A DNA stretch of 64,000 nucleotides, taken from positions 97,990 through 161,989 of the forward strand of contig CAVRFC010000002.1 of NCBI GenBank assembly GCA_963720315.1, written 5' to 3'. Position numbers and translations under genes: made by a program. Below the pieces are notes generated by a model. The model did not search any database and was not told the DNA's origin. It was given only the letters and a program-made list of their open reading frames with translations. Of the stretch, positions 1-18,208 are shown piece after piece; the first letter of the stretch is position 1; every line of letters starts with the position of its first letter. The stretch comes from an uncultured Chloroflexia bacterium (GTDB taxonomy: Bacteria > Chloroflexota > Limnocylindria > Limnocylindrales > CSP1-4).

Positions 1-548
1 CCGGCCCGGCCGGTATCTGCGCGCTTGCCGCCTCCGAGAAGGCAGACGCCATCCTCCTGCGACAGTATCGCGGACTCGTCGGTTTGTACGACCGGTCGTT
101 CGCCTCCCCGTACCGTCTGGATCCAGCGGACCGGGCCGACGCCCCCATCGTCCGCGAGGTCGAACCCGGCGTCTCGTACGTGGACGTCAATGTGCGGGAC
201 GGCCTCCGGCTCCAGCCGGGAACCTCGCTCACGATCCCGTGGGCTGCTGCGGACGTGTCGCGACTCGGCCTCCTGGTCGCAGCCGATGCTTTCCCCGGCC
301 GCGACATCATTTCGGTCAAGACGCCGACAGCGGAGGCAAGGATCGCGGGTCGCCCCAAGGAGGGGCTCGGCTGGGAGTACGTGGACATCTCGGGGGTCGA
401 GGGTGGCGTAACGATCACGGCGCTCGAGGAGGTGGATGTCTTCGAGCTCACCGGCTTCGCACCGTGGACGGGTTCCCGCCTGGCCGGGGGCGATGGGCCG
501 TTCGTGGTTCGCACCGGAGCACTCTGCGGGCCTCGCGTCGCGCCGTGA
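1..548 (+). CDS. 3' end of a gene that starts upstream of the window; hypothetical protein.
   Basis: Open frame (frame 3) runs from position 3 to TGA at 546-548 (...GPAGICALAASEKADAILLRQYRGLVGLYDRSFASPYRLDP...GALCGPRVAP*). Its stop overlaps the GTG start of the next gene (GTGA). No recognisable domain. Confidence 0.4.
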   Translation, partial: GPAGICALAASEKADAILLRQYRGLVGLYDRSFASPYRLDPADRADAPIVREVEPGVSYVDVNVRDGLRLQPGTSLTIPWAAADVSRLGLLVAADAFPGRDIISVKTPTAEARIAGRPKEGLGWEYVDISGVEGGVTITALEEVDVFELTGFAPWTGSRLAGGDGPFVVRTGALCGPRVAP

Positions 549-2644
549 TCGAGGCGGTCCAGACGGTAGCCGTCCTCGTCGCCTTCTTCGTCGTACCCGG
601 GATCACGTGGGGACCGCTCATCGCCCCAGGGACGCCGCCGGGCCTGAGCCGGATCGGGCGAACTGTCGGCTGCAGCCTCGTCGTCACGGCGGTCGCGATG
701 ACCGCGCTGGCGATCGTCGGTGTGCTCCGGCCGGTGGCCGTCGTGCCGACCCTCGCGGTTCTGTCGCTGGCCCCGCTCGCCGTCCCATCGGCTCGTCGGG
801 AAGTTGCCGGGCTGAGGCTCCCGGTCCGCCGTCCCGTCGGCTGGGCGTTGGCCATCGCCGGGCTCGGGCTGGCTGCCACATTCATCGTCCTGCCGTCCCA
901 CGCGAAACTCGACGCCGCACCGTTGCCGGCGTCCACGACGGTCTGGTATTACGCGCATCTCGCCGAGCAGGTAGCCGCGACCGGCGGATTCCCGGCCGAC
1001 TTTCCGGAATGGGGCTCGAACCGGCCCTTCCAGACCGACTACGCGCCCTTCACCGCCCATTCGGCCGCCGTCTTCGCCCTCCTGCCGGCCGACCTTCCTG
1101 CCGCGCTCGAGAGCTACCGGCTGGCGATCCTCGCGGTTGGGTTCTGCCTGGGAGTTCTGCTCCTTCGCCGCTGGTTCTCCACCTGGCTCGCGGTGCTCGG
1201 GACGGTCCTGCTACTCGGGACCGTTCGGCTGGACCAGCGCCTCCTGACCTACCGGCCGGAGGCCTTCGCCTTCGTCCTGGCACTGCTGGCACTGTGGTTC
1301 GTCGACCGCGCCGCGGTCGAGCGGACGCCGCGGATGATCGTGGCGGCCTCGGTGACGCTCGGCGTCGTGTTCGCGGCTCACGCCGAGGTATTCCTTGTGG
1401 TGCTCCCCGCCGCGGCGGGAATCGCCCTCGTCCGAGGTCCGCTTCGCCCGTCGAATGGTCGGGCCGGGTTCCGGTTTGTCGCAGGTCGGCGGGGCCTTGC
1501 CGGCCCCGCGACCGTCCTGGTCGTGGCCGTGCTGGCCGCGGTCCTCGGCTCGCTTGGCAACGCGGCCGTCGCGGGCGAGTTCCGCCTCGCCGGATACGCG
1601 GGCCGGTCGTTGACGGCGGTGGACGTTCCTCCGCCACCGCAACGGCGCATTCCGCCCGGCTGGGCGCTGTCGGGCGATCCAACGTGGGACTTCTTCGTCG
1701 CGGCAACGGAACCCGCCGACCGTGTGCTACCGACCGAATTCACGGATCCTCGACTGCTGCCCCGCTCCACGCTCCATATCTGGCCGCTTCTCGATGGGAC
1801 AACGACGCTCGGGCGGGTCGCGCTTGTCGGGCTCCTGCTCGTACCGATCGTCCTCTGGCCGAGGCTCGACGCGCGGCGCCGACGAGCAATCGCTGTCTGG
1901 CTGACATTCGGGGTCGGGCTGTTTGCAGGGACGTTCCTCATCTACGCGATTTCGGATTCCTACGTGCCGCAACGCGTCGGAGGGCGGCGCCTCCTGCCGT
2001 ATGAGCTGGTCGGGCCCGTCATCGCCGCCACCGCCGGCCTGTGGGCCGCCGATCGGTGGCTCCGGCCCGCCTGGGCCCGGTTGGCGCCCATGTGGGCGCG
2101 GCTGCTCCGGGCCGTGCTCGGGATGGTCGTCGTCGTCTTCGTGATCTCGGCGCCGGCCGGCGGCGGCGACGATGAGGAGCCGGGTCTGACCCGACTCGGC
2201 TATCAGGCCTTCGAATGGATGCGCTCGAACCTGCCACCCGGTTCGCGGATCCTCGCCAACGCCTACACCGACGGGAGCCTGACCCTCCTGTCGGGCGACG
2301 TCGGGATCCTGGACGGTCGCGCCGTCTACCTCGAGGATCCGGAATTCCTCGGCGAAACGACCTCGCTGCTGCTCGGCGCGCGGCGGTTCTTCATGGATCC
2401 TGGCGATCGACGTGGAGCAGCGTTCCTCGCGGACGAGAACGTCGAGTATCTGCTCGTGGTCGGGCCGCGGGGCACGAGCAGCGACCTAGCCGGCTATCGC
2501 CCATTCCCGACGGACATCGACGCCCTCACCGGAGACAGTCGCTACACTCTTATTCAGCGGTTCGGGAATCAACGCCTGATGCTATTCCGGGTCGAGTCGT
2601 CGGGCGTCGGGGCCAGCCACTTGACGAGACCCGTGCCGCTCTAG
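545..2644 (+). CDS. Polytopic integral membrane protein with a C-terminal extracytoplasmic domain of about 250 aa; putative GT-C-fold glycosyltransferase or polysaccharide-assembly protein.
   Basis: ORF 239..2644. Hydrophobic helices begin around 545 (VIEAVQTVAVLVAFFVVPGITWG...), where a GTG start overlaps the upstream stop (GTGA at 545-548). More than 12 predicted TM helices, then a soluble C-domain (GDDEEPGLTRLGYQAFEWMR...YLLVVGPRG...). The stop is 8 nt before the next gene and is followed by a GAGG SD. Fold assignment rests on topology and genomic context only. Confidence 0.55.
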   Translation: MIEAVQTVAVLVAFFVVPGITWGPLIAPGTPPGLSRIGRTVGCSLVVTAVAMTALAIVGVLRPVAVVPTLAVLSLAPLAVPSARREVAGLRLPVRRPVGWALAIAGLGLAATFIVLPSHAKLDAAPLPASTTVWYYAHLAEQVAATGGFPADFPEWGSNRPFQTDYAPFTAHSAAVFALLPADLPAALESYRLAILAVGFCLGVLLLRRWFSTWLAVLGTVLLLGTVRLDQRLLTYRPEAFAFVLALLALWFVDRAAVERTPRMIVAASVTLGVVFAAHAEVFLVVLPAAAGIALVRGPLRPSNGRAGFRFVAGRRGLAGPATVLVVAVLAAVLGSLGNAAVAGEFRLAGYAGRSLTAVDVPPPPQRRIPPGWALSGDPTWDFFVAATEPADRVLPTEFTDPRLLPRSTLHIWPLLDGTTTLGRVALVGLLLVPIVLWPRLDARRRRAIAVWLTFGVGLFAGTFLIYAISDSYVPQRVGGRRLLPYELVGPVIAATAGLWAADRWLRPAWARLAPMWARLLRAVLGMVVVVFVISAPAGGGDDEEPGLTRLGYQAFEWMRSNLPPGSRILANAYTDGSLTLLSGDVGILDGRAVYLEDPEFLGETTSLLLGARRFFMDPGDRRGAAFLADENVEYLLVVGPRGTSSDLAGYRPFPTDIDALTGDSRYTLIQRFGNQRLMLFRVESSGVGASHLTRPVPL

Positions 2645-2652
2645 AGGTTTGC

Positions 2653-3705
2653 GTGCCCAGCATCCTGCGGCTCATCGGAGTGCTCGTCGCGGTCGCGGTC
2701 GTGGTGATTGTGATCGCATTGGCGCGACGGGACGCGAGCCGGGCGATCGTCCTGCCACTCCTCCTGATCGGCGTCGGCCTGCTGGCTATCTCGATAGCGC
2801 CGGACCTGGTCAGACCGGTTCAGGATTTCATCGGCTTGGGAGACCAGCCGGTCGGACGGATCATCACGGTGCTCGTCCTGTCGGTGATGCTCGCCTACCT
2901 CTTGATTTTTCTCGTCTTTGCCAAGGCCGAACGCCAGACCCAGAGGATGCGGCGGCTGATCCGGGCACTATCGGCTGCCCAGATGGAGCAGGAGCAGCTT
3001 GGTGGCCATTCCGGCGGCATTCTCGTCGTGATCCCGGCCTACAACGAAGCGGAGGCGCTGCCGAGTGTGCTCGCCGAGGTGCCGCCGACGGTGGCCGGAC
3101 GGGCGACGCGCATCCTCGTTGTCGACGACGCCTCCCGCGATGGCACCCGTCGCGTGGCGATGCAGCACGGCGCCCACGTTGTAACCCACCCGGTCAACGG
3201 CGGTCAGGGATCCGCCCTCCAGACCGGCTATCTCATCGCGGAGCGGCTCGGTGTCGAGGTTGTCGTGACGCTCGACGCGGATGGCCAGCATGTCCCGACG
3301 GAGATGGAGCGCCTCGTCGGCCCGATCGTTGCCGACGAGGCCGATTTCGTAGTGGGCTCGAGGCGATCTGGGTCGTACGAGCGCGAGGAAGGCGCCGACT
3401 CAATGGCCCGGAACGTTGGGATCGGCGTCTTTACCCGCATCATCAATGTGCTCGGCGGGACGCACGTCACCGACGTCGCGAACGGCTACCGGGCGATTCG
3501 GGCGGACCGCCTGGCCGAGATCGTCTTTACCGAGGACCAATTCCATAACCCTGAGCTGCTGCTCGGCGCGGCGCGGGCCGGCCTCCGGATCCGCGAGGTT
3601 CCGGTCACGATCCGCGTCAGGTCGGCCGGAACGTCGAAGAAGGGCGGCACGCTCCGCTACGGCTATGGCTTCCTTCGGGTGATCGTCCGCTCCTGGCTGC
3701 GCTGA
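2653..3705 (+). CDS. GT2 glycosyltransferase, polyprenyl-phosphate sugar synthase-like (DPM1/Ppm1/GtrB-like), with N-terminal TM segments.
   Basis: GTG at 2653 preceded by GAGG. Three N-terminal hydrophobic helices, then GT2 motifs: LVVIPAYNEAEALPSVL, ILVVDDASRDGT, TLDADGQH (DxD), VVGSR. C-terminus (...GTLRYGYGFLRVIVRSWLR*) is typical of Dol-P-Man-synthase-like enzymes. Confidence 0.8.
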   Translation: MPSILRLIGVLVAVAVVVIVIALARRDASRAIVLPLLLIGVGLLAISIAPDLVRPVQDFIGLGDQPVGRIITVLVLSVMLAYLLIFLVFAKAERQTQRMRRLIRALSAAQMEQEQLGGHSGGILVVIPAYNEAEALPSVLAEVPPTVAGRATRILVVDDASRDGTRRVAMQHGAHVVTHPVNGGQGSALQTGYLIAERLGVEVVVTLDADGQHVPTEMERLVGPIVADEADFVVGSRRSGSYEREEGADSMARNVGIGVFTRIINVLGGTHVTDVANGYRAIRADRLAEIVFTEDQFHNPELLLGAARAGLRIREVPVTIRVRSAGTSKKGGTLRYGYGFLRVIVRSWLR

Positions 3706-4962
3706 GCGCTCATCACCGGGCTCGCGGTACGGCTTGGATGGAACGACCTCCAACGTCTCGCGTTGCCACGCCTCGATCCGGCGACCAAGCAGGAGGTTGA
3801 GCCAGCCGTTCAGGAAGGCGAGGTTCACGATCACGATCGCCAGCGGCAGGCTCCCCAAGCGTGGTGGGTGACCTCCGGCGCGAAGGGCCCAGCCGACAGC
3901 GGCGAGGGCGAGGACGATGAGCCCGGCACCTACGGGCAGCAGATAGGCCGGCTGGCCGCCAAGGCCCAGAACCAGTGCGCTTGCTCCCGCGATCGCCGCC
4001 AGGATCGGCGTCCCCCAGCGGAGGATCTTGTGGGACCAGATCGCGAGGAATGCCGATGGGCGGCGCCACGGGGTCAGGCGCCCGACCATGGACAGGTTCG
4101 CGCGAATGCCCTGCGTTGCCATTCGCGCCCGACTTCGGAACTGCTCGCGCAGTTCGCCCATCGTCCGGTCCGTCGCCGTCGCATCCGGAACGGCCAGCAC
4201 GACTAGCCCTTGCTCGCGAGCTACGAGCGGGAGCTGCTGATCCATCGAGACATGCGGCGGAACCTCGCGGTACGCCGACCGGCGAATGGCAAGGATTGCG
4301 CCCGTGACGGCCGTCAGCCAGCCAGCCCGACTCTCAGCCGCGCGGACGAACTGTTCATACCGCCAGTAGGCTCCCTCGTTTCGGGCGGTTTCGGTCCGTT
4401 CCTCGTCGAGCCAGACGATCCGGCCGGTCGTGGCGCCCACCCGTCGATCCTCGAACGGGGCGAGGAGTGCCGCGAGAGAGCCTGGCCGAAACCTGGTCTC
4501 GGCGTCAGTGAGGACGACGATCTCGCCGCGGCTCGCTGCGAAGATGGCGGCCTGAGCCGCCGCCTGGCCACCGCGCGGCAGGTCGAGCAACCGGATCCTC
4601 GTGTCCTGCCGGGCGGCCGCCATCGCGACCTGTGCTGTCTCGTCTGTCGAACCGTCGGAAGCGATGATCACGTCCAGTTCGAACGGGACCTCCTGCGCGA
4701 GGACGTCCGCGATCCGATCACCAAGCTGGGTGGCCTCGTTATGGATGGCGATCCCGATCGTGACGATCGCGGGTCGGGAATCACCGGGCCGAACCCGGAA
4801 CGGCCTGACGGCGGCGACGAGCCATGCGGTCGCCGGGTAGCCGACGTAGACCCACACGAGCAGGCCCGTCGCGACCCAGAAGATCAGGGAGACCACGGCC
4901 CAAGAGTAGACCCCGAATGAGGCGAGTGTCAGCGCGGTGCCCAGGGCAGGTCCGGAAACCAT
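3400..4962 (-). CDS. GT2 glycosyltransferase flanked by TM helices (processive/cellulose-synthase-like topology). 3' end uncertain.
   Basis: ATG at complement(4960..4962): MVSGPALGTALTLASFGVYSWAVVSLIFWV... GT2 core: IVTIGIAIHNEATQLG, IIASDGSTDET, VVLTDAETRF, QxxRW-like QFRSRARMATQGIR. At least four C-terminal TM helices follow. The frame stays open to 3400, which is 300 nt antisense into the convergent GT2 gene. A tandem TGATGA at complement(3710..3715) in the adjacent frame hints at an indel near the true 3' end. Confidence 0.65.
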   Translation of the reverse strand: MVSGPALGTALTLASFGVYSWAVVSLIFWVATGLLVWVYVGYPATAWLVAAVRPFRVRPGDSRPAIVTIGIAIHNEATQLGDRIADVLAQEVPFELDVIIASDGSTDETAQVAMAAARQDTRIRLLDLPRGGQAAAQAAIFAASRGEIVVLTDAETRFRPGSLAALLAPFEDRRVGATTGRIVWLDEERTETARNEGAYWRYEQFVRAAESRAGWLTAVTGAILAIRRSAYREVPPHVSMDQQLPLVAREQGLVVLAVPDATATDRTMGELREQFRSRARMATQGIRANLSMVGRLTPWRRPSAFLAIWSHKILRWGTPILAAIAGASALVLGLGGQPAYLLPVGAGLIVLALAAVGWALRAGGHPPRLGSLPLAIVIVNLAFLNGWLNLLLGRRIEAWQRETLEVVPSKPYREPGDERSAQPGADDHPKEAIAVAERAALLRRSGRPDADRDRNLADPEAGPRRAEQQLRVMELVLGKDDLGQAVRPNRPVAVRDVGDVRPAEHIDDAGKDADPNVPGH

Positions 4963-6108
4963 CCCCGGAGCCGATCGACCAGCCGAGCCGCTTCCGCAGA
5001 TCGCGTGTGGCGCTTGGCGAAGGCCGTTCCCGACGCGCGGAGTGCGAGCGGGTCGATCCGCCCATCGAAGGGCCGCTGGACGGCGTCGGCCAGCTCGGAC
5101 GGGGCCTTCGTGTGGATCGGCACGAACAGGCCCGCACCGGCGAGCTCGGCGAGCGTGCCAACCGGCCGTGCGACGACCGGCAGGCCCACGGCCATCGCGT
5201 CGAGCACGACCTTCGGGAAATCCTTCGGAGCCGGAGGAGAGTACGAACAGGTCCGATTCGGCGAGAAGGTCCATGTAGCGGCCGCGGTCGGCGACATGAC
5301 CATGCCACGTGATGCGCGATCCGACGCCAAGCCGTTTTGCGGACGAGATCATCGCCGGCATCTCGGGACCCTCGCCGAGGACCGAGAGGCTGGCCGTGGG
5401 AAGGCGAAGTAGCGCGGCTATGACGAGATCGAGGCCCTTTCCGGGGGCGATCCGGCCGGCCCAAACGAGTTCAATGCGTTCAGCCGACACGGGCCATTGA
5501 CGGGCGGCCGGGTCCCGGATTTCGCGATCCTCGATGAGGCTCGAGACGATTCCGCCTCCGGAGAGGATGTCACGACCGACAACGATCCGATGTCGGCCGC
5601 CCGCCAACCGGCCAATGCCGTCGTACGCGGCGCCGATCGCGACGGCGGCCGTTCGATTCGCCGGGGCTCGACGCTGGCTGGCCGCAACCAATCTGGCACT
5701 CCCCGTGACATAGCCGAAGCGCGGCAGGCGGGCGGTACGGGCGAGCCAGGCGGCCAGGGCGGCATTCGACGATGGAACCCGGATCCAGACGAGATCCGCA
5801 CCAGTCAGGGCTTCCCGCAGGATCGGGGCGTTCCGGCGGAGGATTGCTGGCAAGGATCGAAGGTATCCGGCGATCCCGTCGAACGGTGTCGTGGCGACGA
5901 TTCGAAGCCGCTCGTCGACGGGCGGCCGCGTCGGCGGACCATGGGCCGGCCGGACGGGCGCGCAGAGGATGATCTCGTCGATCGCACCGCCCGGGACATC
6001 GAGCAGGGCGGCAAGGAAGATGTCGAACGTCGACGAGGCGGGGTGGACCCGGTCATGCCACGCGACGTACGGGTTGTCGTCGAGGACGGCGAGTCGGATG
6101 CCACTCAC
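4929..6108 (-). pseudogene. GT4-family (GT-B) glycosyltransferase, interrupted by a single-nt frameshift. Either a pseudogene or a sequencing indel.
   Basis: GTG at complement(6106..6108) overlaps the flippase stop (GTGA). N-terminal part in one frame: VSGIRLAVLDDNPYVAWHDRVHP...LVWAGRIAPGKGLDLVIAAL...ESDLFVLSSGSEGFP. C-terminal part in another frame: FPKVVLDAMAVGLPVVARPVGTLAELA...GWFPDLPWAPR*. The canonical E-x7-E motif (SEGFPxVVLEAMA) is split between frames at plus-strand ~5214-5222 (ccc run). Confidence 0.7.
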
Positions 6109-7469
6109 GGGGTGCGAACCCGGCGCGCGAGCCGCGCAACGAGGTCCCGCGCGGAAGCAGCTACGGCGGCAATGTCCGACCGCTTGATGAGGAGCGTCTC
6201 GGCCACGCTCAACCCGGCAACCCGCGTGAACACCGCCACGGTCAGGATCGCGGTCAGTGAGTACGAGATCGATGACGCCGCCGCCGCCCCGTTGATCCCG
6301 AATTGGGGCACGAGCGCGATGTTCGCAACGATGTTCGCCACCAGCCCGATTCCCAAGATCAATGAGCCGACGCCAGGTCGGCCGCTTCCTGTGAGATACC
6401 GCGTCAGGATCGCGACCACGCTGTACGCGACGACACCTGGCAGGATCAGCCGGAGAGCGACGCCGGCGTCGACGAACAGGGGTCCGTAGACGACCCGCAC
6501 GAAGCGCGGGCCGAGGGCGAACGCGGGGACCGCCAGGAGCATGGTGGCCGCTAGTGTCGTACGCGTAAGGATCGCAGCCGTTCGGCCGGCATCGGCGAGC
6601 GGGTCGACGGCCCGGCTGAACATCACCTGCCCGACGGCATTGGGGACGTACCACAGGGTCTCTGCCAGGCCACTCGTCACCGAGTAGACGCCCGTTGCCC
6701 GGATCCCGCTGAACAGGTTGACGAAGAACGAGTCGACGCGAAACTGCAGCCGTTCCGCGACGACGCCGGGGGCCGCGTGGAGGCCGAATCGGAATTGCTC
6801 GGCGAACAGCGGAGCAGATGGCCGGCCACCGACCAGGCCGTCCCGATGCGCCACTACCAGGACAGCCACGAGCGTCAGTCCGAGCGATGCAATATTCACT
6901 GCCAGCGCCGCCGCTAGATCCACATGGGCGACGAGGGCGATAGCCGCCAACATCGCCAACAGCGTTCCCCGCCGCGCCAGACGAAGGAAGCTGTACGCCG
7001 CGATCCGCCGCCTGCCGAGCATGGCAAACAGGCCGAACCCGAAGAGCAGCTCGCCCGGGATTGCGACCGCGGCGAAGACGAACTGGCGGTCGGAGAGGTT
7101 CGGGATGAGGTCGGCGAGCGGCCCGGTGGCGGGTCCCGCGTCCGCCACGCCGTACAACCAGAGGGAGACGAGCATCGCGGCGCCGCCGGCCACCGCGGTC
7201 CAAATGAGCGCGTTGGAGAATGCTCGCCGGCCGTCCTCCTTGTCCCTGCCGGCCATGACCGCGAGCGCCTGGTCCATTCCGAGGCCGACGAGGGTGGCGG
7301 CGATCTGTGAATACAGAAGTACGAGGGCAAAGCGGCCCTTCGCCGCCGGGCCCAGGGCTCTGGCCAGAAGGATGTCGGTCGCGAAGATCAGAACCGCCAG
7401 GCCGAACCTCGACGCGATCGTGACGGTCGTGTCCCGAAGGAGCCGCGACGAGCCGACGTGGCGTTTCAC
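6105..7469 (-). CDS. Wzx-type polysaccharide/oligosaccharide flippase (MOP superfamily, PST family).
   Basis: In-frame GTG at complement(7467..7469) (VKRHVGSSRLLRD...), 13 nt after the upstream stop. About 12-14 TM helices throughout, ending with a basic tail (ARRVRTP*). Stop overlaps the GT4 start. Confidence 0.75.
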   Translation of the reverse strand: MKRHVGSSRLLRDTTVTIASRFGLAVLIFATDILLARALGPAAKGRFALVLLYSQIAATLVGLGMDQALAVMAGRDKEDGRRAFSNALIWTAVAGGAAMLVSLWLYGVADAGPATGPLADLIPNLSDRQFVFAAVAIPGELLFGFGLFAMLGRRRIAAYSFLRLARRGTLLAMLAAIALVAHVDLAAALAVNIASLGLTLVAVLVVAHRDGLVGGRPSAPLFAEQFRFGLHAAPGVVAERLQFRVDSFFVNLFSGIRATGVYSVTSGLAETLWYVPNAVGQVMFSRAVDPLADAGRTAAILTRTTLAATMLLAVPAFALGPRFVRVVYGPLFVDAGVALRLILPGVVAYSVVAILTRYLTGSGRPGVGSLILGIGLVANIVANIALVPQFGINGAAAASSISYSLTAILTVAVFTRVAGLSVAETLLIKRSDIAAVAASARDLVARLARRVRTP

Positions 7470-7482
7470 ATCAGGCGGCAGC

Positions 7483-8511
7483 CTAGTCCGAGCCGGACAC
7501 GGCACGCGGCACGATCGCTGCCAGGTTCCGGTCGGCCAGCGCGGACTCGTACCATCGTGCCGTCCGGGCGAGACCCTCCTCGAGGCCGACGGCGGCCCGG
7601 TATCCGAGCCCGGCCGCGGCCTTGTCGACCCGGCTTACGTTCCGCCGGATGTCGCCCGCGCGATCCGGGCCGTGACGAACCTCGAGCGCCCGGCCGGCGG
7701 CTCGCCCGATCGTCTCCGCCAACTGGTTGACCGTGGTCTCACGCCCGGTGCCCGCCTGGAAGATCTCCCCGGCGACGATCCCCGCCGGCGCGTCGAGCGC
7801 CGCCACCACCGCGGCAGCGAGGTCGCCGACGTACACGAAATCACGTGTCTGCTCGCCGTCGCCGTTGATCGTGATCGGTTCGCCGGCGAGGGCGGCCCGC
7901 ATCCAGGCCGCGACCACGCTCTTCTTGTGGAGCGAGAACGGGCCGTAGGCATTCGAGAAGCGCAGGGCGCAGGCGGCCAGCCCGTACGTGGCCGCGTATG
8001 CCTGGCAGTACGCCTCGCCGGCAAGCTTCGAGGCGCCATACGGCGAGACCGGGTGGGGCAGATCCGTCTCGTCCGCCGGCGGCGGGTGGTCTCCCGCGGC
8101 GGCATTCGACGAGGCGAACACGAAGCGGCCGACGCCCGCGAGCCGGGCGGCGTCGAGCAGGCCGAGCGTCTGCGAGACATTCGCCTCGAACGTGCCGAGG
8201 GGGTCGGTGACGGAATCCGGGATCCCGGCACGGGCGGCGAGGTGGACGACGGCATCGACGCCGTCGACGGCGCTCGCGACCGCCGATCGGTCGGCCAGGG
8301 ACCCCTCGATGAGGTCGTGGGGAACGCCCGCCAGGTAGGCGCGATTGCCGATCGACAGGTTGTCGAGGACTCGGACGCGATCCTCTCGCTCGACCAGGAG
8401 CCGGGCCAGGGATGAACCGATGAACCCGGCCCCGCCGGTGATGAGGACCGTCCGGTTCAGCGCCGCTGCGCCCCGCCCGCGGGCACGCTCTCGAGGCTGT
8501 CCGGGACCCAG
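7483..8511 (-). CDS. NAD-dependent epimerase/dehydratase (UDP-sugar 4-epimerase-like SDR). Start codon uncertain.
   Basis: Rossmann motif LITGGAGFIGS, catalytic YxxxK (SPYGASKLAGE), C-terminal GDIRRNVS. There is no in-frame ATG/GTG/TTG between the SQD1 stop (8457-8459) and the GxGxxG motif. Candidate starts are CTG at complement(8509..8511) or far-upstream codons inside SQD1. Confidence 0.7.
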   Translation of the reverse strand: MGPGQPRERARGRGAAALNRTVLITGGAGFIGSSLARLLVEREDRVRVLDNLSIGNRAYLAGVPHDLIEGSLADRSAVASAVDGVDAVVHLAARAGIPDSVTDPLGTFEANVSQTLGLLDAARLAGVGRFVFASSNAAAGDHPPPADETDLPHPVSPYGASKLAGEAYCQAYAATYGLAACALRFSNAYGPFSLHKKSVVAAWMRAALAGEPITINGDGEQTRDFVYVGDLAAAVVAALDAPAGIVAGEIFQAGTGRETTVNQLAETIGRAAGRALEVRHGPDRAGDIRRNVSRVDKAAAGLGYRAAVGLEEGLARTARWYESALADRNLAAIVPRAVSGSD

Positions 8512-9656
8512 CGGATGTTCTGGACGAAGGTGGTCGGGTCGATCCGGTCGCGCTGATCGGCGATCTTGACGAGCATCGTGTCGATCAGCTCCTCGTTGAG
8601 CAGCCGCGGCTGCAGCCCGAGATCGAGGAGCTTCGAGTGCTGGGCGTTGTAGTAATGCTCTTCCATCTCCTTGCGGGGATTCGGGGTGTGCTCGAGCCCG
8701 ACGTCCCAGCCGAGGTGCTTGCCGGCCGTCTTGACCCGCTCCGCCAGCTCGAGGACGCTGAACTGCTCGGTGAACTGGTTGTAGACGCGTAGTTCGCCCG
8801 GTCCGGCGGGGTTGGCGGCCGCCAGCGAGACGCACTGGATCGTGTCGCGGATGTTGAGGTAGCCGCGGGTCTGGCCGCCCTTGCCGTAGACCGTGAGCGG
8901 GAAGCCGATGACCGCCTGGACGCAGAACCGGTTGAGGGCAGTCCCGAACACCTCGTCGTAATGGAAGCTCGTCGCGAGGCGTGGATCCAGCGCCGACTCG
9001 TCGGTCTCGACACCGTAGACGACGCCCTGGTTGAGGTCGGTCGCCCGGAGGCCCCAGATCCGTGTCGCGAAGTGGATGTTGTGCGAGTCGTGGACCTTCG
9101 AGAGGTGATACATCGAGCCCGGCGTCTTCGGGTAGAGGAACGTGTGCGACCGGCCCTTGTGATCGACGGTCAGGTAGCCCTCCTCGATGTCGATGTCGGG
9201 TGTCCCGTACTCACCCATCGTCCCAAGCTTGACCAGGTGGGTGTCGGGCGATCGGTCGCGAATGGCGAACAGGACATTGAGGTTGCCGATGACGTTGTTC
9301 GACTGCGTGTACGTCGCGGTCCGGACGTCGATCATCGAGTAGGGAGCCGAGGGCTGCTCCCCGTAGTGCACGACGGTATCCGGGCGGAAGTCGTCGATGA
9401 CGGATTCGACGAACGCGTAGTCGGTCAGGTCCCCGACATGGAGCTCGATCTCGTTCTCGGTCACCTCGCGCCAGGCCCGGACGCGCTCGTGCAGGGTCGG
9501 GACGTGGAAGAGGGGCCGGACGCCCAGTTCGAGCTCCCACTGGCGCTTGGCGAAGTTGTCCACGACGGCCACTCGATGGCCCGCCCTTGAGAACGCCATC
9601 GCCGTCGGCCAGCCGAGATAGCCGTCACCGCCGAGCACGAGGATTCGCTGAGCCAC
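8457..9656 (-). CDS. sqdB: UDP-sulfoquinovose synthase (SQD1/SqdB).
   Basis: GTG start with GGAGGG SD 9 nt upstream. Near-continuous similarity to plant SQD1 and cyanobacterial SqdB: RILVLGGDGYLGW, VVHYGEQPSAPYSMID, NNVIGNLNVLFAI, LVKLGTMGEYGTP, YHLSKVHDSHNIHF, ATDLNQGVVYGV, AVIGFPLTVYGKGGQTRGYLNIRDT, FTEQFSV, VPNPRKEMEEHYYNA. Confidence 0.9.
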   Translation of the reverse strand: MAQRILVLGGDGYLGWPTAMAFSRAGHRVAVVDNFAKRQWELELGVRPLFHVPTLHERVRAWREVTENEIELHVGDLTDYAFVESVIDDFRPDTVVHYGEQPSAPYSMIDVRTATYTQSNNVIGNLNVLFAIRDRSPDTHLVKLGTMGEYGTPDIDIEEGYLTVDHKGRSHTFLYPKTPGSMYHLSKVHDSHNIHFATRIWGLRATDLNQGVVYGVETDESALDPRLATSFHYDEVFGTALNRFCVQAVIGFPLTVYGKGGQTRGYLNIRDTIQCVSLAAANPAGPGELRVYNQFTEQFSVLELAERVKTAGKHLGWDVGLEHTPNPRKEMEEHYYNAQHSKLLDLGLQPRLLNEELIDTMLVKIADQRDRIDPTTFVQNIRWVPDSLESVPAGGAQRR

Positions 9657-9790
9657 GTCCTGTTGCCCTCCAGAGGTTCGCCTTGGTGGGACCCCTCGTC
9701 CCGGCCTTCGGGGATCGGCCGGAGTCTACCATCGGACCGCGGGCCGCGGACGTCAGGATGCCCGGCCCGCCCGGTGGTACGCTCGCCCCG

Positions 9791-11257
9791 ATGCTCCTCC
9801 GTCAGTTCGTGATCGACGGTCTCGGCCATCTCTCGACGCTCATCGCCGACGAGTCGGCCGGGCTCGCAGCCGTCGTCGATCCCCGCCGCGACGTCGACAT
9901 CTACCTCGAGGCCGCCCGCTCAGCGGACCTGCGCATCACGTACGTTGTCGAGACGCATCTCCACAACGATTACGTCTCGGGCGCTCGCGATCTGGCGACC
10001 TTGACCGGCGCGACCCACGTCATCGGGGCCGGCGCCGATCTCGCCTACGAGCACCGGCCGATCCGCGACCGCGAGTCGTTCGACGTGGGTGCCCTCCGCT
10101 TCACGGCCCTCGAGACCCCCGGCCACACGCCCGAGCACGTCGCCTACGCCGTCGCCGACACGTCCCGAGCGGGGGAGCCGCTTCTCCTGTTCACCGGCGG
10201 GTCCCTGCTCGTCGGTGCAGTTGGCCGGACCGACCTCCTCGGCGAGGACAATGCGCTGCCGTACGCAGCCTCCATGTTCCACTCGATCCGGGAGGTGATC
10301 CTGCCGCACGAGGACTTCGTGGGGGTCTACCCGACGCACGGCGCAGGCTCCCTCTGCTCGACCGGCATCGCCTCGACGCCATGGTCGACGATCGGCTTCG
10401 AGCGGCGCCACAACCCGATGGTCCAGCCCGCCGACGTGGACGGCTTTGCCCGGCTCCTGCTCCGGGATCAGCCGGCCTTTCCGCGCTACTTCGCGCGGAT
10501 GCGCCCAACGAACCAGGCTGGCCCGCGGCTGCTCGGCGGCGGTCCGCCGGAGCCCCGGCCGATGGCGGTCGAGGATGCTCGCTCCGCCCTGGACAAGGAC
10601 GCCGTGCTCGTCGACCTCCGATCGCCGGCGGCCCATTCGATGGCCCACGTTCCGGGGTCCGTGTCGATCCCGTCAGGGTCGTCGTTCGGAACGTGGCTCG
10701 GCTGGGTGGTGGAGCCTGATCGGCCGCTCGTCCTGATGCTCGACTCGCCGGCAGACTGGGACGACGCGGCCCGCCAGGCGATACGCGTCGGCTACGAGAA
10801 TCTGCTCGGCCACGTCCGCGGCGGCTTCGCGACCTGGACGGAATCTGGCGCTCCGGTCGAGTCGGGCGGCCGCCTCACGGTCGATCAGCTCGCGTCGCGC
10901 CTCGACCGGGGCGGCCCGGAGGCGCCACTCGTCGTCGACGTCCGCCAGGTAACCGAGTACGCCGCAGGGCACGTGCCGGCCGCCCTGCATGTCGCGGCGG
11001 GCCTCCTCCAGGACCGGCTCGAGGACCTGCCACGGGACCGGCCGATCGCGACGATCTGCGCGTCCGGCTATCGGTCGAGCGTGGCCGCATCGCTGCTGCG
11101 GGCCGCCGGCTTCAGCGATGTCAGCTGGGTCGCCGATGGGCTCCCGGCATGGCGCGCTCATGGTCACCCGGTCGAACGCGGGGTGGGTTCCGCGCCCGTG
11201 TCCTCGCCTGAACCGGAGACCCACGCGGCCGCCGCCGGGCACCGGCACCCCGCGTAA
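9791..11257 (+). CDS. MBL-fold metallo-hydrolase fused to two rhodanese domains (persulfide-dioxygenase-like CstB/Blh architecture).
   Basis: ATG 9791 (MLLRQFVIDGLGH...). MBL motifs THLHNDYVSG and ETPGHTPEH. First rhodanese domain lacks the catalytic Cys. Second rhodanese domain has the active-site loop ICASGYRSS. The in-frame ATG at 9758 is an alternative start. Confidence 0.75.
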   Translation: MLLRQFVIDGLGHLSTLIADESAGLAAVVDPRRDVDIYLEAARSADLRITYVVETHLHNDYVSGARDLATLTGATHVIGAGADLAYEHRPIRDRESFDVGALRFTALETPGHTPEHVAYAVADTSRAGEPLLLFTGGSLLVGAVGRTDLLGEDNALPYAASMFHSIREVILPHEDFVGVYPTHGAGSLCSTGIASTPWSTIGFERRHNPMVQPADVDGFARLLLRDQPAFPRYFARMRPTNQAGPRLLGGGPPEPRPMAVEDARSALDKDAVLVDLRSPAAHSMAHVPGSVSIPSGSSFGTWLGWVVEPDRPLVLMLDSPADWDDAARQAIRVGYENLLGHVRGGFATWTESGAPVESGGRLTVDQLASRLDRGGPEAPLVVDVRQVTEYAAGHVPAALHVAAGLLQDRLEDLPRDRPIATICASGYRSSVAASLLRAAGFSDVSWVADGLPAWRAHGHPVERGVGSAPVSSPEPETHAAAAGHRHPA

Positions 11258-11401
11258 GGCGCCTCCGAAGGACTTCCGTACGGATCGCGCCGGGGTCGAA
11301 GGCTCGTGTACCCTTGGCCACGCGGAGTCACGATCCCAGGCGGCTCTCGCCACGATTCCCAGGAGTCCAGGCCACACGCGCGCGGTCGCGGACGCCAATC
11401 G

Positions 11402-14245
11402 ATGGAGGAAGCAGTGCTTCGACCGCCACGCCGCCACACGCGATCGCTCCTCGGCATGTTCGCCGTGGTTGTCAGCCTCGGACTCATCTGGCCCGCGGGC
11501 ATCTCGGCCGGAGGCGCCACGACCACCGCCGGGGCATCGATCCCTGCCGCGCGCTCCGAGCGCACGCCGACGGTGCGCGGCCAGGGCGCCAAGCCGCTCG
11601 ACGCCGGACGTGGCAACGGTCCCGCCAAACCGCTCCAGAAGCCCAGCGTCGACGCTGCGAACAGGAAGAGCGCGTCGTCCTCGCCCAGCGCGTCGGCTCC
11701 GGACGGTGGCGCGGGCACGACAGGCGTTGCCGCGGTCCCCGACCTCGTCACCAACTCCGGCGCGCCCGCGGCGACCTCGTTCGGCCCGTGGGAGGGCCTG
11801 AACCAGACGGCCTCCGGCTTCGAGCCGCCCGACCCCTGGGTCGCGGTTGGTCCGGACGACGTCGTCCAGACCGTCAATAACAGGCTCCGCTTCACGAACC
11901 GCGAAGGGACCTTGACCGCAGCCGACCTCGGGACCTTCGAGTTCTTCGACCTCGGCGATTTCGAGATCGCGAACTCGCCCGTCACGATCGACGGCGTCAG
12001 CGACCCGCGCTGGGTGTACGACACCAAGCACAACCGATGGCTTGGCACGACGACGGGCTGGCATTGCGACGACGATGGCGCCGGCGACGGCGACGATGCA
12101 ATCGGTTTCGTGTTCGGTGCGATCAGCACGAGCGCCGACCCGACGGGCGACTACTACCACTTCTATGTCCTGTACACGGGGTACCTCCCCCACGAGCCGA
12201 CGATCGGTACGTCCGGCGACAAGTTCACGATCGGCGTCAACGAGCACGTCATGACGAACGCAGCGTCCAACTGCGCAGATGGGATCCCCTTCGACGCCGG
12301 CAGCCTGACGACCTTCGACTGGGCGAACATGCTGGCCTTTCCGGCTCTGCCCGACTTCACCTACGACTTCAATTTCGACATGTTCGCGCCGCGGCCCGCG
12401 GTTTCCCCGCAGGGCCTCTCGAACACGATCTTCGTCGTCAGCGAGCACGTAATCGCGTCGGCAACCGAATCGAACGTCCTGTATATGCGTATCACAGGCA
12501 CCAACGCCGGCGGCGGCACCGTGCTCTCACCGCCGCTCGATCTGACCAACCTCAACATCGTCGCCAGCTTTGTGGACCCGCCCGATCCAGAGGATCCGGG
12601 AGGCACCATCGTCGACGCCGTCGATCGCCGCCCGACCGACGCCATCTGGCAGGACAACGTCCTGACGTTCGCCTCGACCTTCCCGTGCGTCGCGCCGATT
12701 GGCACCGGCCGGGACTGCGCCCGCGTCACGCAGCTCAGCACTTCCACGGCGACGCCGTCGCTCGTCCAGGACATGCTCATCGGGACGACCGGCACCGACA
12801 CGTGGCAGCCGGGAATCGGCCAGTCCCAAAGCGGCATCCTCCACGTCGTCTACACCCGGTCGTCGGCGTCCGAGGGAATGTCCTCCTACAACCGCTATCA
12901 GCTCCCCTCTGACGCCGTCAATGAGCTGAGCGCGGCTCGCGAGATCGCTAACGGCGGGGCCGTCGCGTACACCGGCACCGACTGGGGCAACTACGTCGGG
13001 GTCGCTCAGGATCCGCGCGATACGAACGCGGTCTGGCAGGGCAATCAGTACACGAGGTCCAATGGCACCTGGGGAACCCGCGTGAGCGAGCTCCAGACTG
13101 CCGGCTCGACGTTCGTCGGCATCGCGCCGGTCCGGCTGCTCGACTCCCGCTTCAACATCGGGACAACAGGGCCGTTCACGGCGAGCGTCCCCAAGAGCGT
13201 CGACATCGCCGGCCGCGGCGGAATTCCGAACGATGCCGTCGCCATCACGGGCAATCTGACGATCGTCGGACAGCAGCAGGCGGGCTACGCCTCGCTTACG
13301 CCGCTCCCGAACGCGAACCCGGCGACATCAACGATCAACTTCCCGCTCGGCGACAACCGGGCCAACAACGTAACGAGCCCGCTCAGCAACGCCGGCGGCG
13401 TCAGCCTCACCTACAAGGCCGCGGCTGGCAAGCAGACCCACTTCATCCTCGACGTTACGGGCTACTTCCTGAACGACGACTCCGGCCAGACCTATAACGT
13501 CCTGACCCCGCTTCGCGTCCTGGACACGCGGTTCGATGTCGGGCTTACCAACGCGTTCCAGGCCAACGCGAACCGGACATTCCAGGTTGCCGGCGTGGGC
13601 GCCATTCCGGCCAACGCCAAGGCGATCACCGGCAACCTGACGGTCGCCAACCAGACCGGCGGAGGTTTCGTCACGCTCGCCACGAACCCGCCGCCGGCCA
13701 ATCCCGCCACGTCGACGATCAATTTCCCCGTCGGCGACGTCCGGGCGAACGGCGTGACGGTCAAGCTCTCGGGCACTGGGACCCTGTCGGCCGTGTACAA
13801 AGCCCCGCCCGGCAGAACGACCCATCTGATCCTCGATGTCACGGGGTACTACCTCGACAACCTCAACGGCGCACGCTTCGTGGCCGTCGCGCCGGGTCGG
13901 CGTATGGACACGCGGTTCCCGGCTCCGCAGGAGGGACTGACCGGCGCGTTCAGCGCCAACAACGCCAGGACGCTGGTCATTGAGCCGTACCAGGGCGTCC
14001 CCGCGAACGCAACGGCGATCACCGGCAACTTGACCGTTGTCGGCCAGACCCGTGCCGGGTTTGTGTCAATGACACCCGTCGCTGACGACACTCCGGATAC
14101 GTCCACATTGAACTTCCCGCTCGGCGACGTCCGGGCGAACGGCGTCACTGGCCCGATGAGCGGCGCCGGCAGCGTCGGGATCGTCTACAAGGCCTCGGGT
14201 GGGCTGACCCACCTGATCCTCGATATCACCGGCTACTTCCGCTGA
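11402..14245 (+). CDS. Large secreted protein: signal peptide, ~550-aa domain of unknown function, then three tandem ~125-aa repeats.
   Basis: ATG 11402 (MEEAVLRPPRRHTRSLLGMFAVVVSLGLIWPAGISAGG, an h-region followed by an A-x-A-like cleavage site). Ser/Ala/Gly-rich linker. The C-terminus has three repeats sharing RxLDTRF...AxAITGNLTVxxQTxxGFxxxTP...P.TSTxNFPxGDxRANxVT...HxILDxTGYF. Confidence 0.7.
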   Translation: MEEAVLRPPRRHTRSLLGMFAVVVSLGLIWPAGISAGGATTTAGASIPAARSERTPTVRGQGAKPLDAGRGNGPAKPLQKPSVDAANRKSASSSPSASAPDGGAGTTGVAAVPDLVTNSGAPAATSFGPWEGLNQTASGFEPPDPWVAVGPDDVVQTVNNRLRFTNREGTLTAADLGTFEFFDLGDFEIANSPVTIDGVSDPRWVYDTKHNRWLGTTTGWHCDDDGAGDGDDAIGFVFGAISTSADPTGDYYHFYVLYTGYLPHEPTIGTSGDKFTIGVNEHVMTNAASNCADGIPFDAGSLTTFDWANMLAFPALPDFTYDFNFDMFAPRPAVSPQGLSNTIFVVSEHVIASATESNVLYMRITGTNAGGGTVLSPPLDLTNLNIVASFVDPPDPEDPGGTIVDAVDRRPTDAIWQDNVLTFASTFPCVAPIGTGRDCARVTQLSTSTATPSLVQDMLIGTTGTDTWQPGIGQSQSGILHVVYTRSSASEGMSSYNRYQLPSDAVNELSAAREIANGGAVAYTGTDWGNYVGVAQDPRDTNAVWQGNQYTRSNGTWGTRVSELQTAGSTFVGIAPVRLLDSRFNIGTTGPFTASVPKSVDIAGRGGIPNDAVAITGNLTIVGQQQAGYASLTPLPNANPATSTINFPLGDNRANNVTSPLSNAGGVSLTYKAAAGKQTHFILDVTGYFLNDDSGQTYNVLTPLRVLDTRFDVGLTNAFQANANRTFQVAGVGAIPANAKAITGNLTVANQTGGGFVTLATNPPPANPATSTINFPVGDVRANGVTVKLSGTGTLSAVYKAPPGRTTHLILDVTGYYLDNLNGARFVAVAPGRRMDTRFPAPQEGLTGAFSANNARTLVIEPYQGVPANATAITGNLTVVGQTRAGFVSMTPVADDTPDTSTLNFPLGDVRANGVTGPMSGAGSVGIVYKASGGLTHLILDITGYFR
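13105..14242 (+). repeat. Three in-frame tandem repeats (~375-384 nt each) encoding the C-terminal repeat domain of the secreted protein.
   Basis: Repeat units at about 13105-13487, 13488-13870 and 13871-14242. Conserved blocks include ctggacacgcggttc, atcaccggcaacctgac and ggcgacgtccgggcgaacggcgtcac. Confidence 0.7.
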
Positions 14246-14258
14246 TCCAAGGGCCCGG

Positions 14259-14283
14259 TTGCCTGCCAACCGCAGGCGACCCG
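14259..14283 (+). terminator. Putative intrinsic-terminator-like hairpin (GC stem, no U tract) after the secreted-protein gene.
   Basis: ggttgcctgc-caacc-gcaggcgacc: 9-bp stem with one mismatch and a 5-nt loop, 14 nt after the stop at 14245. Confidence 0.3.
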
Positions 14284-14361
14284 GCCGGTACATTCGAGCG
14301 CCACGACCGGTACATCGGGCCGAACGTCGGCTGAGCGTCCGGATGGGACGATCGTCTCACC

Positions 14362-16996: not shown

Positions 16997-18208
16997 GTGT
17001 CAGGACCCACCACGCGCAAATCGGCCGGGGACGCGGAGGATCGCAGGATCCGCCGGTCGTGGCTGGTCCTCTCGGGATCGCTGTTCATCCTCGCCCTGGC
17101 CGCGCTGCTGCGCGTGACGGTCGACGGCGCTCGGCCGCTCGACTGGCTGATGGTCGGGGTCGTCCTCGTGGTCGCCTTCGTCGCGGTCCGGCATCGGATG
17201 GCCGTCGGGGCGCTCGAGACCAGCCGACGCGGTGAAGCGGAGAGCTTCGCCCGGATCCTCCAGGGGCTGTCACGCTCGATCTCACCGGACGCGATCGTGG
17301 ATGCGATCGTGGAAGAGATCGGGTCGGGGACCGGGGCCGACCACATCGTCGTCGCTCGCCGCCGGCCCGACGCTCGCGTCCTCGAGGCGACGCTCGTCAA
17401 CACCCGGACCGGCGGTCCGAGCTCCACGACGCTCTTCCCGATCTCCGACCTCGAGGACCCGCCCGAACTGGACCGTGCCCGGGTCATCGACCCGGCAGTT
17501 CTCGTCGCCCGGCGGATCGCCGCCCGCGCGCGGCGGATCTACGGCCTCAAGCACACCCTGTCGGCACCGCTGACCACCGATGCCGGCGTCATCGGCGCGA
17601 TCGTGGCCTCGCGTCGGACGGCAGAGGCATGGCCCGAATCGGCCCAGCGGATCCTCACCGGTGCCGCCATCGAGGCCTCCGCGGCCCTCTCGCGGGCGTA
17701 CTCGCATCGAGAGGCCGAGGCACGCGCCTCGACGGATGCCCTCACCGGGCTCCCGAACCGGCGCTACTTCGACGAGTTCTGCGCGTTGCTCGCGCGCCGC
17801 CGTCGGTCGCAGGACGCGATCGGAATCCTGATGGTCGATATCGACCGATTCAAGCTGCTGAACGACGCCCATGGGCATGCCGTCGGCGACGAGGTGCTGC
17901 GGGCGGTCGCCGGGGCGATCGCCGGCGCCGTCCGTGAGGACGACGTCCCGGCCCGGTTCGGCGGCGAAGAGTTCGCCGTCCTGCTCCGCAACCCGCACAT
18001 CGACGAGGCCGTCGAGGTCGGCGAGCGCATTCGGATGGCCGTTTCGTCGCTCGACCTGTCGAGGTACGGCGTCCAGTCGGCGAGTGTCTCGGTCGGCGTC
18101 GCGGTGGCGACTCTTCCCCAACAGCCGATCGCCGAGGTCATCGAACAGGCTGATCGCGCCCTGTACGACGCGAAGCGCCGAGGTCGCGACCGGGTCGTCG
18201 CGGCGTAG
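16997..18208 (+). CDS. Membrane GAF-GGDEF diguanylate cyclase.
   Basis: TM helices (LVLSGSLFILALAALL, LMVGVVLVVAFVAV), then a GAF-like region. GGDEF domain with LTGLPNRRYF, MVDIDRFKLLND, catalytic RFGGEEFAVLL and YDAKRRGR. Confidence 0.8.
   Translation: MSGPTTRKSAGDAEDRRIRRSWLVLSGSLFILALAALLRVTVDGARPLDWLMVGVVLVVAFVAVRHRMAVGALETSRRGEAESFARILQGLSRSISPDAIVDAIVEEIGSGTGADHIVVARRRPDARVLEATLVNTRTGGPSSTTLFPISDLEDPPELDRARVIDPAVLVARRIAARARRIYGLKHTLSAPLTTDAGVIGAIVASRRTAEAWPESAQRILTGAAIEASAALSRAYSHREAEARASTDALTGLPNRRYFDEFCALLARRRRSQDAIGILMVDIDRFKLLNDAHGHAVGDEVLRAVAGAIAGAVREDDVPARFGGEEFAVLLRNPHIDEAVEVGERIRMAVSSLDLSRYGVQSASVSVGVAVATLPQQPIAEVIEQADRALYDAKRRGRDRVVAA

Follow-up and report, generated by a model that had tools for sequence, protein, structure and literature searches.

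To our knowledge, sulfoquinovose is regarded as a product of phototrophs, in the form of the lipid sulfoquinovosyldiacylglycerol (SQDG), with archaeal N-glycans as the one exception. The N-glycan of Sulfolobus acidocaldarius contains sulfoquinovose in an Agl3-dependent manner (PMC4388408). That of Thermoplasma acidophilum carries 6-C-sulfofucose (cited in PMC12421959), for which no biosynthetic pathway is known and on which the soil bacterium Paracoccus wurundjeri grows (PMC12421959). Among wall glycans, the secondary cell wall polysaccharide (SCWP) of Bacillus anthracis has a C55-P base, relies on Wzx for flipping, on Wzy for polymerisation and on LCP proteins for attachment, and is decorated by GtsABC (PMC8035078). 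Here we describe a locus at the left edge of a 64,000-nucleotide stretch of contig CAVRFC010000002.1 (the window; about 69% G+C), which stems from an uncultured soil Chloroflexota bacterium represented by a Limnocylindria-type metagenome-assembled genome (MAG). In this locus a homologue of sqdB, the gene for uridine diphosphate (UDP)-sulfoquinovose synthase, is linked to genes for a flippase and several glycosyltransferases (GTs). The window is best explained as holding the edge of a variable locus for a cell-envelope glycan in a Limnocylindria-like member of the Chloroflexota of the monoderm type. We consider it fairly probable that the encoded proteins assemble a polyprenyl-linked, cell-wall-associated glycan with sulfoquinovose or a derivative of it, together with a side-chain module resembling the streptococcal-type GacIJKL system; substrates, acceptor and final polymer are in this case predicted from the genome.

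Real reading frames were picked by the GC content of codon positions, and families were assigned by Pfam and NCBIfam scans. The features discussed below are listed by window position, with transmembrane helices abbreviated as TMs and short-chain dehydrogenases/reductases as SDRs:

3..548, plus strand: last 181 aa of a polytopic membrane protein of 648 aa, whose gene begins beyond the left window edge
545..2644, plus strand: membrane glycosyltransferase predicted to have a GT-C fold, 699 aa
2653..3705, plus strand: fusion of a 3-TM DUF2304 domain with a putative GT2 polyprenyl-phosphate sugar synthase, 350 aa
3400..4962 (ancestral end ~3712), minus strand: membrane-embedded GT2 with an N-terminal TM and ~4 C-terminal TMs
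4929..6108, minus strand: GT4 glycosyltransferase, 392 aa once repaired; frameshifted at 5214/5215
6105..7505, likely start GTG 7469, minus strand: flippase of the MOP superfamily (Wzx/PST type)
7483..8460, minus strand: SDR resembling GalE-type nucleoside diphosphate-hexose C4-epimerases, ~325 aa
8457..9656, minus strand: SqdB/SQD1 homologue (UDP-sulfoquinovose synthase family), 399 aa
9788..11257, plus strand, divergent from sqdB: protein with a metallo-beta-lactamase (MBL) fold and two rhodanese domains

An earlier note on this DNA had described an sqdB operon facing a convergent plus-strand unit, and the gene content, order and strands are as it said. It had also reported 4-nt GTGA overlaps and 13-nt spacers within the operon. 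A GTGA overlap is found at the flippase/GT4 junction (6105-6108) and a spacer of 13 nt separates the SDR stop (7483) from the flippase GTG (7469), whereas the 4-nt overlap of sqdB and the SDR gene (8457-8460) reads CTGA. On the plus strand, the upstream open reading frame (ORF) and the GT-C gene overlap in GTGA (545-548), and 8 nt separate the GT-C gene from the DUF2304-GT2 gene. This unit begins beyond the left window edge, and the locus runs off that edge.

The arrangement recurs in related genomes. We compared 63 distinct species-level related loci, with denominators limited to those with enough downstream sequence. Downstream of sqdB, the SDR gene is found in 52/58 loci (directly, usually with a 4-nt overlap), the flippase gene in 49/56, the GT4 gene in 44/51 and the membrane GT2 gene in 38/46. 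This order, seen in dozens of species-level genomes, is far beyond chance. Orthologous loci that were plain sqdB-sqdX operons would have spoken against the earlier proposal, and the linkage of flippase and GT4 to sqdB shows that they are not of this kind. Furthermore, genes of glycan pathways lie within 10 kb of sqdB, namely Wzy_C (18/63), a Bac_transf initiating phosphoglycosyltransferase (CoA_binding_3 plus Bac_transf, 10/63) and an LCP ligase (5/63), representatives of each flank gene type having been confirmed with Pfam. One related locus (L088) places the pair of GT-C and DUF2304-GT2 genes beside Wzy_C, Bac_transf, a methyltransferase, GT4, GT2 and a flippase. Genes for an initiating transferase, Wzy and LCP are also present in L086. 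The left flank of loci that share the window's allele holds LCP, an Acyl_transf_3/SGNH O-acetyltransferase, LPG_synthase_TM and further GT-C-like genes.

Moreover, part of the locus varies between close relatives. Relative to L006, whose SqdB is 99% identical, nucleotide identity is 92-98% across 7500-16000 and 58-76% across 944-7500, and the GT4 proteins of the two are not alignable. The drop at ~7500 places the break exactly at the epimerase/flippase boundary. Another relative, L087 (SqdB 98% identical), has the same cassette allele as the window. GC content at third codon positions is 0.80-0.83 in the cassette and 0.87-0.91 in the flanks. From the flippase leftwards, the locus is a serotype-like cassette that is swapped between close relatives, with conserved precursor genes. 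By analogy, O-antigen, capsule and wall-polysaccharide loci behave in this way. The hypervariable cassette and the Wzy_C, Bac_transf and LCP genes near sqdB thus fit a surface glycan.

The first enzyme of the proposed pathway is well recognisable. The window SqdB aligns with Arabidopsis thaliana SQD1 (1qrr, 1i24) over residues 3-384 (382 residues) without gaps (514 bits, E 3e-153), whereas the next-best SDRs, ordinary epimerases and dehydratases, reach at most 43 bits (GalE ~23-43 bits). The aligned motifs GGDGYLG (the GxxGxxG motif that binds the NAD cofactor), GTMGEYG and YHLSK are present, and the equivalents of SQD1 T145, M146, E148, Y149, Y182, H183 and K186 are retained; residue roles, including those of catalytic Thr145, Tyr182 and Lys186 of SQD1, have been described (PMC4388408). 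The earlier assignment of the 8457..9656 product to the SQD1 type therefore holds against GalE. Judged by sequence, the protein belongs to the UDP-sulfoquinovose synthase family and would be expected to have the corresponding activity. Its nearest homologues (84-99% identity) come from 'Candidatus Limnocylindrales'/Chloroflexota MAGs, and a look-up of the exact SqdB sequence gave no match. An actinobacterial origin, which the high G+C content might suggest, is rejected on the basis of these homologues.

The SDR encoded directly downstream matches PF01370 (222 bits), and its closest solved structures are C4-epimerases (6wjb/6wj9), GalE (4zrm and 2p5u, the T. maritima and Thermus enzymes), WbgU and WbpP. 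It has SSN instead of the dehydratase TDE, and YxxxK is present. Its start is a CTG within the CTGA overlap, which is kept in the nine closest loci; other loci have GTGA (13), ATGA (12) or TTGA (1) at this site. This suggests that CTG is a non-canonical start maintained by translational coupling to sqdB. A lesion of the start codon was considered and is ruled out by the conservation of CTGA in these nine loci. Sulfofucose is the C4 epimer of sulfoquinovose. A C4-epimerase translationally coupled to sqdB is hence a candidate route to sulfofucose, the link to the Thermoplasma type of sulfofucose being hypothetical. Taken to its end, this idea has the Limnocylindria-type Chloroflexota, an abundant class of non-phototrophic bacteria of soil and freshwater, placing a C-sulfonated sugar in a strain-variable wall polysaccharide, with the coupled epimerase making UDP-sulfofucose from UDP-sulfoquinovose. 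We regard it as rather unlikely, since genes of the galE type are often present in glycan loci for unremarkable reasons. The flippase, a polytopic protein of ~460 aa, exceeds the gathering scores of both PF13440 (36.9 vs 23 bits) and PF01943 (33.2 vs 28.2 bits); its match to MurJ is weak.

Two glycosyltransferases complete the operon, and both genes carry lesions in the window. The GT4 ORF is not intact in the window copy. One extra base in the CCC run at 5214/5215 splits the frame (EGFP|KVVLDAM), and this base is absent from the same-allele locus L087. Once repaired, the protein matches PF00534 and PF13692 and aligns along 99-100% of its length with intact proteins of 392 aa, at 82-86% identity. 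By its linkage to sqdB, the GT4 is the most likely sulfosugar transferase. In a comparison by database names, none of the 120 listed GT4 homologues is called a sulfoquinovosyltransferase (SqdX/SQD2, KEGG K06119), and the IMG name for these homologues is 'glycosyltransferase involved in cell wall biosynthesis'. The membrane GT2, which is of the Glyco_tranf_2_3 or synthase-like class, matches PF00535 (79 bits), PF13641 (63 bits), PF13632 and PF13506 and has the conserved motifs SDGSTD, TDAET and R.R..G. Its ORF continues to 3400 (520 aa), whereas orthologues have 395-398 aa. Relative to L087, ~21 nt are deleted at 3707-3716, by which the ancestral stop (~3712) is lost and the frame extends by ~105 codons, antisense to the DUF2304-GT2 gene and across the 3' end of that gene (3400..3716). 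This deletion rules out a homopolymer frameshift, which we had considered as the cause of the run-on. A single-sequence AlphaFold2 model of the membrane GT2 is too poor for use (pLDDT 44), and a sequence search of this protein against solved structures was uninformative.

In the plus-strand unit, a model of the 545..2644 protein built from 58 homologues (pLDDT 90.2, pTM 0.92) predicts a GT-C fold with confidence. The earlier note had described a polytopic protein of at least 12 TMs with an extracytoplasmic domain of ~250 aa. The TM count (~13-14 in the model) and the GT-C character agree with this, whereas the domain, which is C-terminal, globular and similar to the C-terminal domain of AglB, measures ~150 aa. 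None of the 58 family members contains the oligosaccharyltransferase motif WWDxG, or a WWD at all; NA[YW]TDG is conserved at 572-577 instead. GT-C enzymes have a conserved catalytic acid in the first extracytoplasmic loop, for which E155 and D165 (PEWG...FQTDY) may be candidates; both lie in the loop that follows helix 97-124 and show conservation of at least 90%. The DUF2304-GT2 protein matches PF00535 (81 bits) and PF10066 (DUF2304, 35 bits), both over cut-off. Its top NCBIfam matches are PpgS (5e-31) and AglJ (5e-29), both far below the equivalog cut-offs (PpgS 108 vs 370 bits), and its closest solved structures are ArnC (E 2e-11) and Pyrococcus DPMS (E 2e-10). The description of 2653..3705 as a polyprenyl-phosphate GT2 is thereby sustained, to which the N-terminal DUF2304 membrane domain is added. 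As in multi-component transmembrane glycosylation, the genes for GT-A synthase, helper domain and GT-C adjoin, and a Wzx-type flippase, which may or may not serve this module, is encoded in the convergent operon. Further upstream, the 3..548 product is 68% identical to residues 468-648 of the 648-aa protein encoded upstream of the GT-C gene in L087, which has a weak, sub-threshold match to PF10131 (PTPS_related, E 1.5e-4). We take PF10131 to be a member of the GT-C clan, and the 3..548 gene probably encodes a second GT-C-like protein. At its position, locus L003 has two tandem genes of ~650 aa.

Based on these assignments, the following pathway can be proposed. SqdB would use UDP-glucose together with sulfite to form UDP-sulfoquinovose, and the GalE-type epimerase would either supply a UDP-galacto-sugar or C4-epimerise UDP-sulfoquinovose. 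A lipid-linked acceptor would receive sugars from the GT4 and the membrane GT2 on the cytoplasmic side, and the MOP/Wzx-type flippase, as its family and linkage suggest, would move the lipid-linked unit outward. Outside the membrane, the unit might then be polymerised, attached or both by proteins such as those encoded by the Wzy_C, Bac_transf and LCP genes that share the locus in related genomes. In parallel, the DUF2304-GT2 and GT-C proteins, similar to GacI, GacJ and GacL, would make a polyprenyl-phosphate monosaccharide and place it on the polymer at the outer face. The genes for Wzy, the initiating transferase and LCP of this genome would lie elsewhere or left of the window.

The neighbours of sqdB may bear on its sulfur supply. 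The divergent 9788..11257 product matches PF00581 (97 bits, two domains) and PF00753 (31.6 bits), and its MBL motif reads HLHNDY, with tyrosine in place of the fourth histidine. It adjoins sqdB in 28/63 related loci, some of which are without glycan genes. Sulfite is freed by the chemistry of rhodaneses and persulfide dioxygenases, and the MBL-rhodanese protein may thus supply sulfite or another sulfur donor to SqdB. A PF03601 (Cons_hypoth698) membrane protein is encoded between GT4 and membrane GT2 in 12 sqdB loci (L039-L046, L048, L052, L065, L030; e.g., L042:14872-15993). This family is presumably the 'putative sulfate exporter' of NCBI and would be another sulfur-related neighbour.

Several observations weigh against a sulfoquinovose-containing wall glycan and have to be set beside its support. 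The window SqdB scores 458 bits (E 2e-137, model positions 2-373 of 384) with NCBIfam NF041015 and does not reach the equivalog cut-off of 575. Its residue 102 (codon ~9351..9353) is proline at the position of SQD1 Arg101 (GEQPSAP vs GEQRSAP). Agl3 depends on Arg101, since its R101A mutant has no activity. The arginine is kept in SQD1, Agl3, Sinorhizobium meliloti SqdB, a Pseudonocardia copy and two outgroup loci, and no biochemically verified enzyme was found among the proline-type members checked. Phylogenetically, the proline-type clade spans Chloroflexota, Terriglobia, Solirubrobacterales and some Alphaproteobacteria. Within the window, Pfam and NCBIfam scans of 1-49 kb detect no genes for an initiating phosphoglycosyltransferase, Wzy or LCP, and in related genomes Wzy_C, Bac_transf and LCP occur in a minority of the 10-kb flanks. 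The DUF2304-GT2 gene is linked to sqdB in just 16/40 loci, and ~7 related loci have sqdB without any glycan genes. Donor and acceptor of each transferase, including which one takes UDP-sulfoquinovose, are predictions. Finally, the frameshifted GT4 and the lost stop of the membrane GT2 may mean that the pathway is inactive in this strain or that the assembly is wrong.

That the locus is undergoing inactivation in this strain, or that its lesions are errors of a long-read MAG assembly, is a doubtful but not negligible explanation and is compatible with every other reading. The window would in this case hold a non-functional or mis-assembled copy of a system that otherwise works. In comparison with L087, only the window has the extra base in the GT4 homopolymer and the ~21-nt deletion. 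The same-allele contigs L086 and L087 themselves have many fragmented genes, with sqdB, SDR and flippase split. Fragmentation of this kind is typical of long-read assemblies that were left uncorrected, and it matters for judging if the GT4 frameshift of the window is real. The other genes of the window locus are all intact, however, the CTG start is shared by nine loci, and a C-terminal extension need not inactivate the membrane GT2. The proline at position 101, in turn, could indicate that the enzyme makes another C6-modified UDP-sugar (e.g., UDP-glucose-5,6-ene, its 4-keto form or the product of another nucleophile), which would lead to an ordinary or other deoxy-sugar glycan. Arginine in all verified enzymes checked (SQD1, Agl3, S. 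meliloti SqdB), as opposed to proline in the window protein and in ~80/85 of the nearest bacterial loci across several phyla, speaks for this, as does the score below the NF041015 cut-off. The proline is hence a trait of the clade, not a defect of the window gene. On the other hand, the position probably corresponds to the NAD-contacting Lys84 of GalE, a site that varies among SDRs. Given also the gapless match to SQD1 with its retained catalytic residues and the recurrence of sulfur-related neighbours (MBL-rhodanese 28/63, PF03601 12/63), a different product seems highly improbable.

The main rival holds that SqdB and the GT4 make a sulfolipid, either SQDG itself or a sulfoquinovosyl glycolipid on a glycosyl-diacylglycerol core made by the membrane GT2. 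The flippase, DUF2304-GT2 and GT-C would then serve a different glycan pathway that is encoded nearby but unrelated, or else the flippase would carry the glycolipid to the outer leaflet. An sqdB beside a GT4 is indeed the classical cyanobacterial SQDG layout, in which SqdX/SQD2 are GT4 enzymes, and the membrane GT2, with its PF13506 match, is built like the membrane synthases of glycolipids or oligosaccharides. Moreover, some relatives keep sqdB without the other genes, beside fatty-acid synthesis genes. In the loci that lack the core genes and in the outgroup loci, no SqdX-like GT4 is detectable beside sqdB, the neighbours being fatty-acid synthesis, transport or unrelated genes. Against the sulfolipid speaks that the flippase is linked to sqdB as tightly as the GT4 (49/56 vs 44/51), the flippase stop lying within the start of the GT4 gene. 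Moreover, the GT4 homologues listed are in no case annotated as a sulfoquinovosyltransferase; related loci have Bac_transf, Wzy_C and LCP genes intermixed with sqdB; and a hypervariable cassette is not expected of a lipid headgroup pathway. We therefore judge the sulfolipid explanation unlikely. In another alternative, the one nearest to the earlier note's, the GT-C protein would act as an oligosaccharyltransferase that moves a flipped oligosaccharide en bloc to proteins, as a bacterial analogue of the Sulfolobus Agl3/AglB system. This is quite improbable, because WWDxG is absent and the GT-C protein is paired with a polyprenyl-phosphate monosaccharide synthase; the pair looks like a GacIJKL-type module for single-sugar side chains rather than an en-bloc transferase. 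The flipped sulfoquinovose glycan that the earlier note had proposed has partial support. On the whole, that note's observation was largely right; its interpretation withstands the three refuting conditions that it had set and is strengthened by synteny, but stays a genomic one, and two window genes carry lesions.

Some further genes around the locus deserve mention. To the right of the MBL-rhodanese gene and conserved beside it, 11306..14245 (plus strand) encodes a 979-aa protein that has no Pfam or NCBIfam match; two patches (~12500-12750 and ~13500-13750) diverge sharply from L006 within the region of 92-98% identity, and the protein may be surface-exposed. Two GAF-GGDEF diguanylate cyclases (14362..16890 and 16997..18208, plus strand) follow and are kept there in many relatives; cyclic di-GMP often governs surface polysaccharide production. 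In 15 loci, a conserved ~320-aa protein that lacks a Pfam match is encoded with the sqdB operon; it is not found in the window, and its gene lies directly upstream of sqdB (L021, L030, L035, L036, L039-L045, L048, L052, L065) or in the flippase-GT4 gap (L003:13722-14567). On plasmid pPA12743CP of Pseudonocardia autotrophica (L090, NZ_AP018921.1 273939-289155), an sqdB-like gene (56% identical) of the Arg101 type has as neighbours a GT2, a GNAT gene and a flippase annotated as murJ. These are not orthologous to the window genes, and the plasmid provides a second, non-orthologous instance of sqdB near a flippase.

If a sulfosugar-containing wall glycan is indeed made by this widespread class of non-phototrophic bacteria, it would constitute an unrecognised non-lipid sulfosugar pool in the organosulfur cycle, the release of which would need different glycosidases. 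It would also give Chloroflexota anionic, phosphate-free wall polymers functionally comparable to teichoic and teichuronic acids. The coupled epimerase and the MBL-rhodanese protein would be testable candidates for sulfofucose synthesis and for the in vivo sulfur donor of SqdB, respectively. Should the sulfofucose idea be true, the locus would hold the first biosynthetic route to this sugar and point to an environmental source for consumers of the Paracoccus wurundjeri type.

Keyword searches with partial coverage of the literature, by which absence is not proven, found no report that links sulfoquinovose or sqdB to a flippase, to Wzx/Wzy or to a bacterial polysaccharide cluster. Comparison with described systems shows which parts are shared. 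With the SQDG operons (cyanobacterial sqdB-sqdX, alphaproteobacterial sqdB-sqdD-sqdC), the locus has in common the family of the first enzyme and a glycosyltransferase near sqdB; in S. meliloti, whose SqdB is just 40% identical and has Arg101, a glycosyltransferase gene directly follows sqdB (sqdB-sqdD). These operons lack a flippase, a polyprenyl-phosphate sugar synthase, a GT-C protein, a coupled epimerase and cassette variability. As in the Sulfolobus Agl3 route, a UDP-sulfoquinovose synthase would feed a glycan that is lipid-linked, flipped and transferred outside the cytoplasm rather than a membrane lipid, as far as the genes of the window can tell. The Sulfolobus system is archaeal and dolichol-based and uses an AglB with WWDYG, whereas the window is bacterial, with a GT-C protein that lacks WWDxG and a cassette like those of wall polysaccharides. 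Furthermore, the window SqdB is much nearer to plant SQD1, with its full-length 514-bit match, than is Agl3, which is ~40% identical to SQD1. In Mycobacterium tuberculosis, PpgS (Rv3631), Rv3632 and Rv3779 reportedly decorate arabinogalactan with galactosamine by means of a GT2 stimulated by a small membrane protein and a GT-C protein; the parts are similar, but the PpgS score stays below its cut-off as given above, and sugar and phylum differ.

The closest likenesses are found in monoderm wall glycans. All gene types of the B. anthracis SCWP pathway, including its GT-A/flippase/GT-C module for further glycosylation, occur around sqdB in related loci, although that polymer has no sulfosugar and the window itself is without Wzy, initiating transferase and LCP genes. 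The parts of multi-component transmembrane glycosylation of the GacIJKL type are likewise recognisable, i.e., a GT-A polyprenyl-phosphate sugar synthase, a 3-TM helper, a Wzx-type flippase and a PMT_2-like GT-C protein that decorates a wall polysaccharide outside. GacJ is, we believe, a DUF2304 member. In the window, by contrast, DUF2304 helper and GT2 form one protein, the flippase gene belongs to the convergent sqdB operon instead of adjoining the GT2 and GT-C genes, the phylum is Chloroflexota and the sugar could be a sulfosugar. By analogy, the locus thus appears to combine two known monoderm mechanisms, Wzx/Wzy/LCP wall polysaccharides and multi-component transmembrane glycosylation (PMC8035078), and it is a new variant within known glycan-assembly systems, not a new kind of system.

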